Virus record (IMG/VR): IMGVR_UViG_3300006201_000477
From: a virus
DNA length: 43,085 bases
Reading direction: 5' to 3' (one strand)
Position 1 is the first letter of the stretch. Each line of letters begins with the position of its first letter. A program made the position numbers and the translations under genes. The notes beneath the pieces were generated by a model. That model was not told the DNA's origin and ran no database searches. It worked only from the letters and a program-made list of their open reading frames with translations. Positions 6,320-13,476 of this stretch are shown piece by piece.

Positions 6320-7795
6320 ATGAAAAATGGTGCCCTATACATTCGCGTCAGCACTCATATGCAGGATGAGCTTTCCCCTGACGCCCAAAAACGGCTCCTT
6401 CTTGATTACGCCAAAGCAAACCATATTATTGTATCTGAAGATTATATCTTTGAAGAAAAAGGGATTTCTGGGAAAAAAGCTGATAAGAGGCCGCAATTCC
6501 AGCAGATGATTGCTCTTGCCAAAACAAAGCCCACTCCCTTTGATATTATTTTAGTATGGAAATTCTCACGCTTTGCCAGGAACCAAGAAGAATCTATTGT
6601 ATATAAATCTTTGTTAAAGAAACAAGGCGTTGAAGTCCTAAGTGTAAGTGAGCCTGTAGCAGAAGGCCCTTTTGGGAGCTTAATTGAACGTATTATTGAA
6701 TGGATGGATGAATATTACTCTATCCGCCTCTCTGGCGAAGTTATGCGGGGCATGACAGAAAAAGCCCTGCGGGGTGGCTATCAGGCAAGCCCGCCACTTG
6801 GATACCGCATGGACATTCCCAAAAAACCACCTGTTATTGTACCTGAAGAAGCTGCTGCCATCCGTTATATTTTTGATGCCTATGCTAACCAGAACAAAGG
6901 AATCTTTGAGATAGCACGCGCTTTAAATGAAATGGGTTATGAAACGCAACGCCACAAACCATTTGAACGCCGTTCTGTAGAATACATACTTCAAAATCCT
7001 ATGTACTGTGGCTTGCTTAGATGGAATAGACATTGTAATGAGACAAATGAGATTAAAGATGAATCTGAATGGATTATCCGAAAAGGGGAACATCAGGCAA
7101 TTATTTCCGAGAATTTATTTAATAAAGCCCAAGAACGTTATTATACTGAATACAAGCCAAAAGGGGCAAGGCCTTCTAGCACTTATAAACATTGGCTATC
7201 TGGCCTTGTAAAATGCCCTGCCTGTGGCCGTACCATGATTGCTAAAGCAGTAAAATCTTCAGGAAGAATCCTATTCTATTTTACTTGTTATGGATATAGT
7301 AAAGGAAAATGTGCCGCCAAAACTTCAGTTGCTGCTACTAAGTTAGAGCCTGCTGTGCTCTCTTCTATCCAAGAAGCCTTCCAGGCAGAAACCTTTTCCT
7401 ATAGCAATCTTATCTCCCCTAGGCAGCCTGAATCTACTTCTGCAGAACAAAAACGTATTAACGATTTAATCCACAGAGTTACTTTTAAGGAACAGCGTGC
7501 CCGTGACGCATATATCAATGGTATTGATACTATGGAAGAATATAAAAAGAACAAGCTTCGGTTACAGGAAGAACGGCAGCGGCTAGAAGAAAAACTTGCC
7601 CTTCTCTCTCCTATTAAGCCGAATCTTTCCCCTTCAGAAGTAAAGCAGCTAATGCAAAAACGCTTGAAAAGTGTCTATGATGTGCTTCTATCTAATGCTG
7701 ATATTCCCACGAAAAACTCTACGCTCAAAAATGTAGTAGAAAAGATTATCTATAATAAAGAAACAGATACGGTAAAGCTCTATTACTATTCTTAA
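6320..7795 (+). CDS. Large serine recombinase (integrase)
   Basis: Resolvase catalytic N-terminus (ALYIRVSTHMQ). A recombinase domain follows, then a Cys zinc ribbon (CPACGR...CYGYSKGKC) and a C-terminal coiled coil. Confidence 0.95.
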   Translation: MKNGALYIRVSTHMQDELSPDAQKRLLLDYAKANHIIVSEDYIFEEKGISGKKADKRPQFQQMIALAKTKPTPFDIILVWKFSRFARNQEESIVYKSLLKKQGVEVLSVSEPVAEGPFGSLIERIIEWMDEYYSIRLSGEVMRGMTEKALRGGYQASPPLGYRMDIPKKPPVIVPEEAAAIRYIFDAYANQNKGIFEIARALNEMGYETQRHKPFERRSVEYILQNPMYCGLLRWNRHCNETNEIKDESEWIIRKGEHQAIISENLFNKAQERYYTEYKPKGARPSSTYKHWLSGLVKCPACGRTMIAKAVKSSGRILFYFTCYGYSKGKCAAKTSVAATKLEPAVLSSIQEAFQAETFSYSNLISPRQPESTSAEQKRINDLIHRVTFKEQRARDAYINGIDTMEEYKKNKLRLQEERQRLEEKLALLSPIKPNLSPSEVKQLMQKRLKSVYDVLLSNADIPTKNSTLKNVVEKIIYNKETDTVKLYYYS

Positions 7796-7872: not shown

Positions 7873-8763
7873 CTATATTGCTGCCCCTCTCTCATTTGTC
7901 TGAAGCATATGCCCATCTGCCGCGAACACATATAATTCTATTCCATGTACAGGACTTTCTACCGTTAATAATTCATTACAAGCCATTGCTCCAGATGATT
8001 TTAAGTAATACCTTTTTTCTTCGTCCTTTAGCCAGCCTGTCTGCATAATCCCGTTTGAATCAAAATGATACCACAGCCCATCTACTTCCTGCCAGCAGTT
8101 TTTGCATATCTCCCCATCTGCTTTCTTGTACTTCCAAATGTCCCCTTCCTGTATCCAGCCAGACTTATCCCCATAATCCACATAACATATGTTCCTATCT
8201 ACTCGCCCTGAAATCCCTGGGATACTTCCTGAATCCGTGTGCTGCCAAAGTGCCATATCCTCTCTATTACAAACCTTGTTATAGTACGCATACCATATAG
8301 CATACCCTTCTTCCCTTAACTGTGTCAAGTTAAAATATTGGTTTGCATAATCCTTATTGGTATACACCATTGGTATGTATCCTGCTCCCTTCACTTCTCT
8401 ACAAAAAGCAAGTGTCATATCCATAACCAACTGCCTTGTTACCTTGACACCTTTCCTTTCTGCATAACGAACAGAATCATATTCGAAGTCAAAAGCAATC
8501 GGATAAATAACCCTATATTTTTTTGCCTGGCTAATACAATACTGTGCTTCTCGTCTAGCCATTTCAACCGTATAAGCATAGGAGAACCAGTATAGCCCTA
8601 AAGGGATTCCCTTTTCCATACAGGCAGCAGCATAAGGAACTAGCTTCTCATCTATGTTCCCTGCCCCATATCCAGCACGAAGTATAATGAAGTCTACTGC
8701 TTGTCTTACTTTATCCCAATCTGTTACTTGATTATGGGTACTTAAGTCGATTCCTCTTTTCAC
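7873..8763 (-). CDS. Endolysin: GH25 muramidase with C-terminal cell-wall-binding repeats
   Basis: GH25-like N-terminus (GIDLSTHNQVTDWDKV...FIILRAGYG). The C-terminus has aromatic GW-rich repeats of the CW_binding_1 type. Confidence 0.9.
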   Translation of the reverse strand: MKRGIDLSTHNQVTDWDKVRQAVDFIILRAGYGAGNIDEKLVPYAAACMEKGIPLGLYWFSYAYTVEMARREAQYCISQAKKYRVIYPIAFDFEYDSVRYAERKGVKVTRQLVMDMTLAFCREVKGAGYIPMVYTNKDYANQYFNLTQLREEGYAIWYAYYNKVCNREDMALWQHTDSGSIPGISGRVDRNICYVDYGDKSGWIQEGDIWKYKKADGEICKNCWQEVDGLWYHFDSNGIMQTGWLKDEEKRYYLKSSGAMACNELLTVESPVHGIELYVFAADGHMLQTNERGAAI

Positions 8764-9946: not shown

Positions 9947-10540
9947 TTAACTATACATATCTCTACAAATAATATCCTTTATTTTTGTCACAGAAGAACT
10001 CACATAAATCCCTAATTCTCCTATTTTTCCCTTTAACACTACGTCATCCCCCTCATCACCAAGATAAATCCGTTTACAATTTACTGGCACAGTATCTTCT
10101 ATATACCCATAATAATAGCCATCTATCGAATCATACTCCATATATAACGTATCTGATCTGGTTCCTGTATCATATCGAAACCATGTTTCATCTTCTCCAT
10201 TGGAGCAAACATACATATCTACCGTAAACCCTTCCCCAAATGCTACATAGGTTCCATTTAACATTACCCGTATCTCTGCTCCTGCCAGCGTTTCTGCATT
10301 AGCAGCAGAATTTGAAATTGTCACATGTGCCCTATTATTCCAAACATCTCCACCAGCATAAGCAGGTCCACCACATACCGAATATAAAACTTCAATCGTT
10401 ACTCCCTCTGGCCATATCGTTTCCCATGCCCCATTTTTATAAACCTTCCCTTCTGTAATTTCCCTCCATGCCCCACTAGAATACCGTTTGATACTGCTTA
10501 CATCTTGCCATGCCCCATTGGTATATTTTTTTATACTCAT
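9947..10540 (-). CDS. Hypothetical tail-fibre-associated protein
   Basis: The N-terminus has a repeated Y-x-x-GAW-x-x-I motif. It follows fibre gene 2 after a 9-nt gap. Confidence 0.5.
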   Translation of the reverse strand: MSIKKYTNGAWQDVSSIKRYSSGAWREITEGKVYKNGAWETIWPEGVTIEVLYSVCGGPAYAGGDVWNNRAHVTISNSAANAETLAGAEIRVMLNGTYVAFGEGFTVDMYVCSNGEDETWFRYDTGTRSDTLYMEYDSIDGYYYGYIEDTVPVNCKRIYLGDEGDDVVLKGKIGELGIYVSSSVTKIKDIICRDMYS

Positions 10541-10549
10541 CTTCTCACC

Positions 10550-11029
10550 TCACCAAGCCCAAAGAACAGAACTACTAGAAGGCGTAGAAGATTGGATCGC
10601 CACTCCTTTGACACTCGTTGCCACAGGCACCCCATTGGAAAAATACACTGGCTGCATAGTAGAACCTGCATTGGCATTTAACTTATTGGCAGAACTGGCA
10701 GCTCCCCCTGCTGTAGCAGAACCTGCATAGGTATGGGTATGCCCCGTTTTTGCAAAAGCAGAAGCATGGTATCCATCTACAGTATCTGCATTACATTGAT
10801 CCTCCTCTGCTTTCGCATCCCATTTTCTCTTTTCTTCTTCGGTTACATGAACCTTCCCATCTTTCACATGTTTTTCTGTTTCTTCTACTTTCTTCTTTAA
10901 ATACACATCATTGTTTAGTAATGCCCCTTTTATCCCATTTTCTAGCTCTGCTGTTAAATACTCCTCTTCTTCTACCTGATGGATCTCCTGCTGAAACTCT
11001 GGTGGTTCTTTGATTGCTAAATTTCCCAT
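10550..11029 (-). CDS. Tail fibre protein (paralog 2)
   Basis: The N-terminal ~80 aa are alignable with 13867..14520 (M-x-NL-x-IK-x-P-x-EF...NND-x-YLK-x-K...EEEK-x-KWD). The C-terminus reads GHTHTYAGSATAGGAA. Confidence 0.7.
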   Translation of the reverse strand: MGNLAIKEPPEFQQEIHQVEEEEYLTAELENGIKGALLNNDVYLKKKVEETEKHVKDGKVHVTEEEKRKWDAKAEEDQCNADTVDGYHASAFAKTGHTHTYAGSATAGGAASSANKLNANAGSTMQPVYFSNGVPVATSVKGVAIQSSTPSSSSVLWAW

Positions 11030-11057
11030 CGCACTTTCCTCCCCTCTCTTACTCCCA

Positions 11058-11085
11058 TCAAAAAGAGCACCCTATTCGGATGCCC
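11058..11085 (-). terminator. Weak minus-strand hairpin plus U-tract upstream of fibre gene 2
   Basis: On the minus strand, GCAUCC-gaaua-GGGUGC is followed by UCUUUUUG. Confidence 0.35.
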
Positions 11086-11096
11086 TTACTTTCTAT

Positions 11097-11223
11097 TTGC
11101 AATCTATTTCTTTTTGTGTTATACTACCTTTATCAAAGGGAACACCACCCACAAAGTGGTTAGCCTCTATATTTTAAGTGAAATAACTGCCTGTCCGGCT
11201 AAGACAAGGGCAGTTATTTTTTT
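11097..11223 (+). ncRNA. Candidate antitoxin sRNA (promoter to terminator), convergent with the holin-like toxin ORF
   Basis: TTGCAA at 11097..11102, a 17-nt spacer, then TGtTATACT with its -10 at 11120..11125. Terminator stem 11181..11191 / 11209..11219 is followed by T8. CACCACCC at 11143..11150 is complementary to the toxin SD GGGUGGUG. Confidence 0.45.
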
Positions 11224-11225
11224 GC

Positions 11226-11312
11226 CTATTTCCTATTCTCTAAACAGGAGATAAGCGCAAGCAAGAATAACCCGAATGTCAACATCAATGATATTGCTTC
11301 GTATGTACTCAT
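11226..11312 (-). CDS. 28-aa hydrophobic holin-like toxin (type I toxin candidate); not in the ORF track
   Basis: Translated by hand: MSTYEAISLMLTFGLFLLALISCLENRK. SD GGGGGGTGGTG lies just upstream. An extended -10 (TGtTATAAT, complement of about 11381..11389) is also upstream. Confidence 0.6.
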   Translation of the reverse strand: MSTYEAISLMLTFGLFLLALISCLENRK

Positions 11313-11418
11313 GTGCACCACCCCCCTTCTTTGGTAAAAAGAGAGGCAAACTACCCTATCTGTGGTGTCCCTTATGTTTTATTATAACACAATCCTTCGA
11401 ATGGTTCTATTCCTTTTT

Positions 11419-11811
11419 TTATAATACTTTCTTGGCTGCCCCATTTACTCCTACATACATACTACACCTCTTTACCTTCCCATTTACCCCTGCATAGGCT
11501 GCTTGGATTGCCCTGCTTACGCCACTCACTCCTACAAAGGAACCATGGTTGTCATTACAAGCTGTGTTGCAAGTCCCTGTACAGGTTCCTTTACATGTTT
11601 TTTCACATTCTCCCTCACAGGTATCCTCACAACTTCCTTCACAATCCCCTTCACAGCTTCCTTCACAGTCTCCCCCACAACTATCTGTACATTCCGTATA
11701 ACAAGTATTGTCGCAACCATCACAATACCCTACACAACCATCATCACAACCCCCACATCCTGTACACTCCCCACAAATATTTTCACAACTATCCCCACAT
11801 TCCCACGCCAT
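11419..11811 (-). CDS. CXXX-repeat cysteine-rich protein (candidate radical SAM substrate) with a non-Cys C-terminal tail
   Basis: 22 Cys in residues 5..85. Fourteen consecutive Cys sit at exact i+4 spacing (C33..C85). The C-terminus carries two Y-x-GVNG-x-x-K repeats. Confidence 0.8.
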   Translation of the reverse strand: MAWECGDSCENICGECTGCGGCDDGCVGYCDGCDNTCYTECTDSCGGDCEGSCEGDCEGSCEDTCEGECEKTCKGTCTGTCNTACNDNHGSFVGVSGVSRAIQAAYAGVNGKVKRCSMYVGVNGAAKKVL

Positions 11812-11817
11812 TCTTTA

Positions 11818-12135
11818 TCACCCCTGTTCTCTTTCCCGAAACGTTAGGTTCAAATATTTGTTTTTCTCGGAATATGTAGTATAAATAGAGGCCAATGTAG
11901 GAAATCCTTGGTATGTTTTTACTGCCACCCCATTTTGATCTACCACTGTGATTTCTTCCATTCCTATGGTTTTATAATAATGCACTGCCTCATCTCCTGT
12001 GATACTCCCTAATACAGACATATCCACTTGTACCACTAAGGATTTCACCACTTCCTGCCCTACCAAATCAATCCTCTCATCTACACGGTTTACATGCTGA
12101 ATTTCTGTCTTTCCATCTTGTAAAAGAATTTTCAT
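11818..12135 (-). CDS. Hypothetical protein between the maturase and the Cys-rich gene
   Basis: 105-aa ORF that starts directly after the rSAM stop. No motif recognised. Confidence 0.6.
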   Translation of the reverse strand: MKILLQDGKTEIQHVNRVDERIDLVGQEVVKSLVVQVDMSVLGSITGDEAVHYYKTIGMEEITVVDQNGVAVKTYQGFPTLASIYTTYSEKNKYLNLTFREREQG

Positions 12136-13476
12136 CTAGTTTCCTCCCCCTGCTAATTCTTGTAATTTCTCATATTCTTCTTTCCTCACAATTTCTTTTG
12201 CCTTCTCATACGGCAGAAAACAACCCATTCTTTCTGGCACTCCCTTCTTCCTATAATATGTGTTCCAAAAATATACATTCGCTAATGCCCTTGCCTTATG
12301 CATCCCACAAATAAAAGTTGCCCTTTTATCTGGTGTCCCAAACTTTTGATAATTATATGCGGTGCACCAAGCACAACCATCTGCAACAGGACACAAAAAA
12401 CATTCTTCTGTTGATTGGGATTTTCTTGTAATGCCTTTTAAACAAGAAAGACAATCCTTACACTGCTTCGAAGTACCTATTCCTTCCTCTAAACTTCCAA
12501 TTACCATTGGTTCCTGCTCTGTCCCTAGAGAAGTCTCCATAAAGCGGATACAAGGGTATAGGATTCCATCTGGATCACAAGCAAGCATCCTTCCATTCCC
12601 ACCACACCAGTTTTCATTCTCACTTTCTTGTAATGGTCCAAAACTATTCTCTAAGAAAAGGGAACAATAGGTGCTTTCTACTAAATCCTTTTCGATATAA
12701 TACTTGGCAAGTTTTTTCAACTGCTGGTAAAAGATAGCTGGGTGGACTTGGTTATCCCATACATCTTCAAACACACAGTTCGCATGAATATCCCGAAACC
12801 CTATTTTATGTAAATGGATCATGGATTCATATAAGAATCGAATATTTTCCGGTGAAATGGTAACTTTTGTCCCTGTATTCCCATACTTCCTTAAACTATG
12901 CTTTACCGCTTTTTCTACAAGATCATACGAATGGCTTCCATCTGGAAACCGCCGGCAAGCATCATGCAGCTCTTTATTTCCATCAATCGTAATATTTAAC
13001 GAAGTCCAGTTCCCATACTCTTTCAAGAACTCCTGAAATCGTTTATCAAAATATAAGATCCCATTGGTACAAATCGAAAACCGATGGAACTCTAACCACG
13101 GGTGATGGAAAAGGATCATTCTTTCTGTTACATAATCACAGATTCTTCGGATTAACTCGATCTCCAACAAAGGTTCCCCTCCAATAAACTCGATCACAAT
13201 TCCCCCTGTGTTATCTTGACTGATATACTGGTCCCCTCTTGCTGATAAAAGCTGATCCACAAACTGCTTTGCTGTCTCAAAGGACATGGATTTCTTTTTC
13301 TTATGGGTCTGGTAACAATAACTACACTTCAAATTACAATCATCTGTTACCTTAAAGGTAACGGTCCTTACTGCCCTCCATGTCCCTTCTGCTACCTGCC
13401 CCTTCTTTTCCTCTAAATCAGGAAATAGCTTTGCAATATAATCTGGATAATGAATTGGTCTGTACCTTTTTATCAT
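12136..13476 (-). CDS. Radical SAM / SPASM-domain peptide maturase (anSME-like)
   Basis: CX3CX2C at C47/C51/C54 (CNLKCSYC, nt 13315..13338). C-terminal SPASM-type Cys clusters: CGGNGRMLACDPDGILYPC and CKDCLSC...CFLCPVADGCAWC. Confidence 0.9.
   Translation of the reverse strand: MIKRYRPIHYPDYIAKLFPDLEEKKGQVAEGTWRAVRTVTFKVTDDCNLKCSYCYQTHKKKKSMSFETAKQFVDQLLSARGDQYISQDNTGGIVIEFIGGEPLLEIELIRRICDYVTERMILFHHPWLEFHRFSICTNGILYFDKRFQEFLKEYGNWTSLNITIDGNKELHDACRRFPDGSHSYDLVEKAVKHSLRKYGNTGTKVTISPENIRFLYESMIHLHKIGFRDIHANCVFEDVWDNQVHPAIFYQQLKKLAKYYIEKDLVESTYCSLFLENSFGPLQESENENWCGGNGRMLACDPDGILYPCIRFMETSLGTEQEPMVIGSLEEGIGTSKQCKDCLSCLKGITRKSQSTEECFLCPVADGCAWCTAYNYQKFGTPDKRATFICGMHKARALANVYFWNTYYRKKGVPERMGCFLPYEKAKEIVRKEEYEKLQELAGGGN

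Follow-up and report, generated by a model that had tools for sequence, protein, structure and literature searches.

In bsrG/SR4, a type I toxin-antitoxin pair of the Bacillus subtilis SPbeta prophage, nucleotides 1-35 of the toxin mRNA pair with nucleotides 232-262, binding of the antisense RNA SR4 extends the 4-bp duplex at the Shine-Dalgarno (SD) sequence to 8 bp, and the mRNA is degraded by RNase III (Jahn & Brantl 2013, PMC3834814). For txpA/RatA of the B. subtilis skin element, the account given in that paper describes RNA decay only, with no SD change or translational effect reported for RatA; the par system (fst RNA I/RNA II) of Enterococcus faecalis plasmid pAD1, in the summary given there, interacts through 5′ direct repeats and the terminator and inhibits translation alone. 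TxpA, BsrG and PepG1, validated members of one toxin family, behave as type I toxins (PMC2887945, PMC3834814), and TxpA-like peptides have already been reported from Clostridiales, Lactobacillales, Staphylococcaceae and a Staphylococcus phage (Fozo et al. 2010, PMC2887945). Here, we describe an unannotated 311-bp cassette in a gut-Firmicute prophage, found within a 43,085-nt stretch of viral DNA (IMG/VR record IMGVR_UViG_3300006201_000477; the whole stretch is called the window below), that is most probably a type I toxin-antitoxin system of the TxpA/BsrG (Pfam Hol_Tox) family with a predicted cis-encoded antisense RNA. Its closest described counterparts are bsrG/SR4 and txpA/RatA, in which the antitoxin is antisense to the 3′ untranslated region (3′UTR) of the toxin mRNA, and not par/Fst.

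The putative toxin is a peptide of 28 amino acids (aa) encoded on the minus strand (Table 1). A first-pass annotation, made from the DNA letters alone, had called the locus type I toxin-antitoxin-like and the peptide Hol_Tox-like, with a single transmembrane helix and a polar tail. One hydrophobic helix and a polar or charged C-terminus can be read directly from the sequence, and a profile search bore out the family assignment, with residues 1-22 matching Pfam Hol_Tox (PF16935) at 44.5 bits, above the gathering cut-off of 23.3 (E=1.4e-11). Hol_Tox was the only family returned by a Pfam scan of the peptide up to E=10, and no Fst/Ldr-type family appeared in it. The N-terminal family signature M-[ST]-T-Y-E..M..F is present, and in an alignment of the peptide with B. 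subtilis TxpA and eight relatives the residues M1, T3, Y4, E5, M10 and F13 were invariant. The NCBIfam models PepG1 (NF041589; 27.4 bits, equivalog cut-off 70) and ComI (NF052249; 22.3 bits, equivalog cut-off 55) were matched without their cut-offs being reached; by these scores PepG1 and ComI are relatives of the peptide, which is the equivalog of neither. Among the PHROG families it matched phrog_9488, of unknown function (E=7e-10). The peptide is presumed to be toxic.

Searches for the peptide itself returned little. Exact look-ups of the 28-aa product, and of a 31-aa product that would begin at a GTG codon, gave no match, and the exact peptide is absent from a collection of 15 billion proteins; among GenBank phages, neither tblastn with the peptide nor blastn with the locus gave a match; and phmmer of the peptide against 1.8 billion representatives gave three matches only, two of them short peptides. 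The 31-aa version was dropped, as the relatives all begin at an ATG with an SD sequence 8-10 nt upstream. The absence of the exact peptide from the 15-billion-protein collection shows how cassettes of this kind elude gene callers.

Relatives were gathered from IMG/VR and from one genome per GTDB species using degenerate DNA patterns for the peptide N-terminus. The resulting set shares M-[ST]-T-Y-E-[AS] by construction, and the numbers of loci used below (91, 77, 78, 67 and 41) are samples among the matches listed, not a census. Nearly all pattern matches were complete open reading frames (ORFs), 23-49 codons long and bearing this signature, and their hosts included Clostridia (Lachnospiraceae and others), Bacilli (Halobacillus and others), Tissierellia, and Negativicutes such as Phascolarctobacterium and Veillonella. 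Close copies of the cassette are carried by two 98% identical sequences (L010 and L012) and by a Lachnospiraceae metagenome-assembled genome from mouse gut (L081); the latter shares 91% identity with the window along 2.5 kb, and its toxin differs by one amino acid. Since this genome is so similar and has the cassette, the host of the window is probably also a Lachnospiraceae bacterium. The substitutions among these 91-98% identical copies fall at a synonymous position (ACA to ACG), in hairpin loops, or where pairing is kept (C to U, giving G-U), with the G14V replacement in L081 as the sole exception. One further locus (L122) has two toxin copies on opposite strands about 2.7 kb apart, MTTYEALSLMITFGILVATIISVCK and ...TIVLGCK, which may be a duplicated cassette.

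The RNA that would carry the toxin ORF also points to bsrG. A 259-nt toxin RNA is predicted to fold with -90.5 kcal/mol (z=-5.6), and in the minimum-energy fold its leader and 3′UTR form a helix of 30 pairs, here called P1, with the SD sequence in a stem-loop on top. Rfam, scanned permissively over 10500..12000, gave a single meaningful match, the BsrG toxin mRNA (RF01412), which aligned with the minus strand at 11377..11116 over positions 1-259 of the 259-position model (35.7 bits, E=1.8e-6). To follow this structure through the relatives, an RNAalifold analysis of a 39-sequence MAFFT alignment recovered it in parts only, with helices out of register between subgroups; hence duplex energies of cognate and non-cognate partners, which need no alignment, were used together with a 13-sequence alignment in which the helices are in register. 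Over 77 loci, the duplex of leader and 3′UTR averaged -33.2 kcal/mol for cognate partners, -20.4 for non-cognate partners and -17.7 for shuffled sequences, and the cognate duplex was the stronger in 69 of the 77. In the 13 in-register relatives 82.6% of cells are paired, compared with 38-52% when the partner columns are slid, and 24 pairs vary on both sides; of the 14 outer P1 pairs, 11 do so. The covariation score of this alignment was reached by none of 500 shuffles. The hairpin that holds the SD sequence is paired in 79% of cells.

Negativicutes with Hol_Tox-type ORFs were represented by four Phascolarctobacterium loci (L047, L053, L073, L075) and two from Veillonella (L061, L064), and three of these (L047, L061, L073) are among 40 loci with a strong leader/3′UTR duplex. 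The BsrG-like RNA design is thus not confined to Bacilli and Clostridia.

The toxin mRNA is predicted to start at about 11375-11373 on the minus strand. Its TG-extended -10 element is the best upstream site in 63 of 91 relatives, compared with 11 of 91 on the opposite strand, and the weak -35 element TAGAAC (11409..11404) lies outside the interval of the first-pass annotation. Formation of P1 sets a minimum for the other end: its covariation means that the toxin mRNA must run about 45-50 nt beyond the hairpin that directly follows the toxin stop. From this folding model, the toxin mRNA, made from its own extended -10 promoter, would be expected to measure at least about 240 nt. Either this mRNA or read-through from the late operon may end at the terminator downstream of the cassette.

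On the plus strand, the near-consensus promoter for a convergent small RNA (sRNA) that the first-pass annotation had pointed out is present, and it proved to be conserved. In loci with enough flanking sequence (n=91), taking the best opposite-strand site between 50 and 230 nt past the toxin stop, a sigma-70-type promoter with a score of at least 10 was found in 80 of 91, and on the toxin strand of the same region in 7 of 91. Antisense starts are predicted 72-137 nt past the toxin stop in the relatives and at stop+93 (~11132) here. The toxin ORF, its SD sequence and its extended -10 element likewise lie where the annotation had placed them. As an observation apart, the two facing promoters of the cassette (11381-11390, minus; 11116-11125, plus) have the extended -10 core GTGTTATA(A/C)T in common.

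The hairpin past the toxin stop is also present, with a run of 7 consecutive T (11217..11223) in place of the T8 tail described earlier. Its predicted stability is nearly the same on the two strands (plus, -17.9 kcal/mol; minus, -18.3 kcal/mol), and in the relatives its stem covaries. At least seven U among the ten nucleotides after the hairpin were found in 41 of 67 loci on the sRNA strand and in 4 of 67 on the toxin strand. The hairpin had been taken for a bidirectional terminator shared by both transcripts; it is not an equal stop for both RNAs, because P1 needs toxin transcripts that read through it and because the U tail favours the sRNA strand. Instead, it appears mainly to terminate the sRNA, and within the toxin mRNA to form an internal stem-loop. 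Conserved convergent promoter and U tail together give the predicted antitoxin of about 92 nt, which would end at this hairpin and would therefore be perfectly and fully antisense to the toxin 3′UTR, leaving the coding sequence without overlap. A match of the sRNA to Rfam OrzO-P (E=3.1) was taken as chance.

According to the mechanism that we propose, the leader and 3′UTR of the free toxin mRNA would close P1 and leave the ribosome site in the hairpin on top. Pairing of the sRNA with the 3′UTR would open P1 and free the anti-SD segment GCCUCU from its 3′UTR partner, the SD-sequestering hairpin would then grow from 6 to 12 bp and translation would be blocked. By analogy with bsrG/SR4, the ~92-bp duplex of sRNA and 3′UTR would in addition be a substrate for RNase III, destabilizing the toxin mRNA. 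Folding is consistent with the first of these effects. In the predicted fold of the free mRNA, the 5′ half of GCCUCUCUUUUU pairs with AGAGGC in the 3′UTR and only CUUUUU of the segment pairs with AAGAAG, upstream of the SD sequence; with the 3′UTR blocked, as it would be in the sRNA duplex, the entire segment pairs with AAGAAGGGGGGU. The predicted cost of opening positions -16 to +3 is 10.7 kcal/mol in the free mRNA and 19.8 kcal/mol with the 3′UTR blocked. Among 41 relatives the mean cost goes from 15.2 to 16.9 kcal/mol and is higher in 28 (Wilcoxon p=0.006). In the 13 in-register relatives, the anti-SD segment keeps each of its two alternative pairings (88% and 79% of cells paired). Two natural variants have additional structure in this part of the RNA that could tune a switch: an extra hairpin of about 24 nt in the loop between anti-SD segment and SD sequence in L087 (1219-1470), and a long structured insertion in the leader of L144.

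Family membership, homology to the bsrG RNA, the covarying P1, the conserved convergent promoter and the presence or absence of the cassette all follow from the sequence and its comparison with relatives. Several points nevertheless weigh against the reading as a whole. The two promoters, like every RNA end, are predicted, so that synthesis of the two RNAs and their exact ends is presumed. The putative toxin has only 28 aa, whereas TxpA has 59. The BsrG match of 35.7 bits is below the Rfam gathering cut-off of 55, and the terminator stem-loop found immediately after P1 in bsrG is missing from that place here: almost nothing aligns with model positions 237-259, 11160..11136 forms only a weak hairpin with a CCCUUU tail, and the nearest strong terminator past P1 is about 48 nt away (11087..11058). 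The opening cost does not rise in 13 of the 41 relatives, including the close relatives L086 and L087. Finally, RNA decay alone could be the mechanism, because no translational effect is reported for txpA/RatA; for the same reason the translational part is the less certain of the two proposed effects.

The low Rfam score can be calibrated. The validated B. subtilis txpA (L022) scores only 38.1 bits with the BsrG model, so 35.7 bits is what would be expected of a true but divergent homologue; L014, L076, L081 and L085 score 39-44 bits (44.2 for L014), and L020, at 59.3 bits, is above the cut-off. A second locus adjoining txpA (L022 1393-1665) scores 128.8 bits, far above txpA itself, and is presumably the neighbouring bsrH-type module.

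Table 1. Features of the cassette and its immediate surroundings (window coordinates).
Feature	Position	Strand	Description
Whole cassette	11099..11409	both	present in some related phages, absent in others (BLASTN)
Toxin promoter	11381..11409	minus	-35 TAGAAC 11409..11404 (weak), 17 nt, extended -10 TGTTATAAT 11389..11381
Toxin leader, 5′ strand of P1	11342..11376	minus	from fold and covariation
Anti-SD switch segment GCCUCUCUUUUU	11336..11347	minus	5′ half has the 3′UTR (AGAGGC) or the SD sequence as partner in alternative predicted folds
Ribosome-binding region AAGAAGGGGGGUGGUG	11316..11331	minus	SD GGGGGG 11326..11321
SD stretch GGGGGGTGGTG	11326..11316	minus	upstream of the toxin ATG
Toxin ORF (putative), 28 aa, MSTYEAISLMLTFGLFLLALISCLENRK	11226..11312 (stop codon counted)	minus	ATG 11312, TAG 11228..11226
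Hairpin directly past toxin stop	11181..11219, 39 nt	both	putative terminator of the antisense RNA (UUAUUUUUUU, plus strand); internal stem-loop of the toxin mRNA
3′ strand of P1 in the toxin 3′UTR	11134..11168	minus	local hairpin ACCACUU-UGU-GGGUGGU with CCCUUU tail
Antitoxin promoter (predicted)	11097..11125	plus	TTGCAA 11097..11102, 17 nt, TGtTATACT ending 11125
Predicted antisense antitoxin RNA, ~92 nt	~11132..11223	plus	from promoter and terminator positions
Pre-existing phage terminator	11058..11087	minus	GGGCAUC..GGGUGCUC then UUUUU; -15.4 kcal/mol; in filled and empty sites

The window is a myovirus-like prophage. It encodes a portal, major head protein, tail sheath, tape measure, baseplate and tail fibre; after these come a radical-SAM gene, a Cys-rich ORF, genes for an XhlA-like protein and a GH25 endolysin that has choline-binding repeats, and then a serine integrase. 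The cassette lies in the late region, as the first-pass annotation had noted, between the tail-fibre-like and the lysis genes; this location had been called unusual, whereas it is typical of type I systems, which in B. subtilis and Clostridioides difficile reside in prophages as a rule (PMC6563280). Two related IMG/VR phages (L003 and L004), with flanks 84-90% identical to the window, are without exactly 11409..11099 (BLASTN alignments run up to 11410 and resume at 11098), and in both empty sites the stop of the Cys-rich gene is directly followed by the terminator that the window has downstream of the cassette. By this comparison the cassette is an accessory insert ('moron') in the late region of the prophage. 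The 7-nt sequence AATAGAA is found at both junctions (11405-11411 and 11091-11097) and once in the empty site (L004 204-210), and the left copy reads AATGGAA in L081; a clean target-site duplication was considered for the cassette ends and dropped in favour of this 7-nt microhomology, which may mark how the cassette was acquired.

This placement gives some substance to a rival explanation, in which the main role of the peptide is that of an accessory to phage lysis (such as a holin, an antiholin or a lysis-timing factor) made by late-operon read-through and the antisense RNA just silences it in the lysogen. The cassette precedes the XhlA-like and endolysin genes by about 2 kb; in L085 it lies between XhlA-like and amidase genes, and in L076 it immediately precedes an amidase gene; the peptide has a weak match to a PHROG holin (phrog_3488, E=6e-5); and insertion upstream of the phage terminator means that late transcripts would run through the cassette. 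However, the empty-site phages keep homologous XhlA-like and endolysin regions (84-88% identical), indicating that the cassette is dispensable for lysis, and many relatives, such as L054, L074, L086 and L087, have it in ordinary non-phage chromosomal surroundings. A promoter of its own and a dedicated antisense gene, both predicted, also speak against such a role, as does the behaviour of the validated family members as type I toxins. We therefore regard a primary function in lysis as improbable, and a type I toxin-antitoxin cassette, which may serve prophage retention or defence, as the better account.

Beyond addiction, there is a slim chance that the phage uses the toxin as a membrane-damaging lysis-timing or superinfection/abortive factor. 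Because the cassette lies between a late-gene stop and the terminator, read-through of the late operon in lytic growth would carry the toxin ORF, and such a long late transcript could outrun the antisense RNA. If this were true, the recurrent place of the family beside XhlA and endolysin genes (L085, L076) would gain a function, and the ~0.3-kb cassettes would form a 'lysis-adjacent' module that is portable across Clostridia, Bacilli and Negativicutes.

Around the cassette, the minus-strand interval 11419-13476, between the tail-fibre and lysis genes, holds the radical-SAM gene (446 aa), an ORF of about 105 aa and the Cys-rich ORF, which has many CxxxC repeats and gave no Pfam or PHROG match. 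The same trio and an XhlA-like gene precede the toxin cassette in L085 (1788-3981), where BLASTN found no DNA similarity to the window. Further along, the large serine recombinase gene (6320-7795, plus) adjoins and converges with the endolysin gene (7873-8763, minus), a junction that probably marks one end of the prophage.

A second rival explanation follows the par/Fst logic of the first-pass annotation: both RNAs would end at one bidirectional terminator, and the 5′ part of the sRNA would mask the SD sequence by pairing of CACCACCC with GGGUGGUG. The 8-nt match on which it was built is real and unlikely by chance. The repeat occurs three times in the window (chance expectation 0.62), including the sRNA copy at 11143..11150 and a second copy at 11316..11323 that is the complement of the SD sequence. 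The window duplex of the translation initiation region with the sRNA (-18.3 kcal/mol) is stronger than the family mean, and a moderate U tail follows the hairpin on the toxin strand here (UUAUUUCACU), so that some toxin transcripts could end there. In the relatives, however, the masking is not specific to cognate pairs: the duplex of the sRNA 5′ part with the ribosome site averages -15.5 kcal/mol for cognate, -14.7 for non-cognate and -12.9 for shuffled partners, and the cognate pairing is the better in just 44 of 78 loci. It is also marginal in energy, as the 8-bp hybrid of CACCACCC and the SD sequence is worth -14.4 kcal/mol and opening costs 4.5-10.3 kcal/mol in the mRNA and 7.1 in the sRNA, leaving a net of about -2.8 to +3.0 kcal/mol against about -102 for the 94-bp antisense duplex. 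The presence of CACCACCC is explained more simply, because it is the complement of the P1 3′ strand. Together with the read-through that P1 covariation demands and a Pfam result of Hol_Tox with no Fst-type family, this makes a par/Fst-like arrangement quite improbable, and the sRNA is better described as antisense to the toxin 3′UTR, as in bsrG/SR4 and txpA/RatA.

That the ORF and promoter-like sites are decayed or chance features without function is highly improbable: a generic promoter scan of the 5-kb region found sites no more numerous than in shuffled sequence, but the Hol_Tox match, an architecture conserved and covarying over dozens of genomes, and the synonymous, loop or pairing-preserving substitutions among close copies (G14V apart) all stand against it. 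The Hol_Tox E-value, the z-score of the toxin RNA and recurrence in dozens of unrelated genomes place the features of the locus far beyond chance.

The locus adds a member to a well-studied type I toxin-antitoxin family and does not overturn the current understanding of it. It supplies a gene pair that was missing from the annotation of a gut Lachnospiraceae-type prophage, and the relatives indicate that the bsrG-type RNA design, with a 5′/3′ closing helix, a switchable anti-SD segment and a 3′-overlapping antisense RNA, recurs well beyond Bacillus, in Clostridia and Negativicutes. This comparative set can help in the annotation of type I systems and in the choice of a tractable example, and the filled and empty related phages are a natural pair for asking about effects on prophage stability or lysis.

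Compared with the described systems, the cassette shares with par, by prediction, transcription units that converge around a hairpin, a small one-helix toxin and a short repeat complementary to the SD sequence; it differs in the toxin family, in an sRNA whose whole length is predicted to be antisense to the 3′UTR, and in a repeat that is neither conserved nor energetically favoured. The type I modules of C. difficile prophages (e.g. CD0956.2/RCd10), for which a role in prophage stabilization has been proposed, are likewise found in prophages of Clostridia and encode short hydrophobic toxins with charged C-termini, but those toxins are reported to have no sequence similarity to TxpA/BsrG (PMC6563280), the family to which the peptide described here belongs. 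In size, the predicted antisense RNA of about 92 nt is close to that of E. faecalis EF3263, which is about 110 nt (Fozo et al. 2010, PMC2887945). With txpA/RatA the cassette has in common the toxin family, an antisense RNA (here predicted) over the toxin 3′UTR and a prophage-like setting, whereas TxpA carries a long C-terminal tail and RatA, in the account cited above, acts by decay alone (PMC3834814), where folding here predicts a change at the SD sequence. The two loci score about the same with the BsrG model. Several traits are shared with bsrG/SR4: the toxins have the N-terminal signature M-[ST]-T-Y-E...M..F, the Rfam model aligns with the toxin mRNA of the cassette from end to end, the toxin mRNAs have a long 5′/3′ P1, the antitoxin is convergent and cis-encoded (by prediction in the cassette), both systems reside in prophages, and the SD sequence sits in a short hairpin, for which folding here predicts an extension upon binding of the antisense RNA to the 3′UTR. 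The differences are the shorter peptide, a P1 with no terminator directly after it, a score below the Rfam cut-off and a prophage of Clostridia (Lachnospiraceae) rather than Bacillus. SR4 is moreover longer and overlaps bsrG only partly, whereas the ~92-nt sRNA predicted here is overlapped in full.

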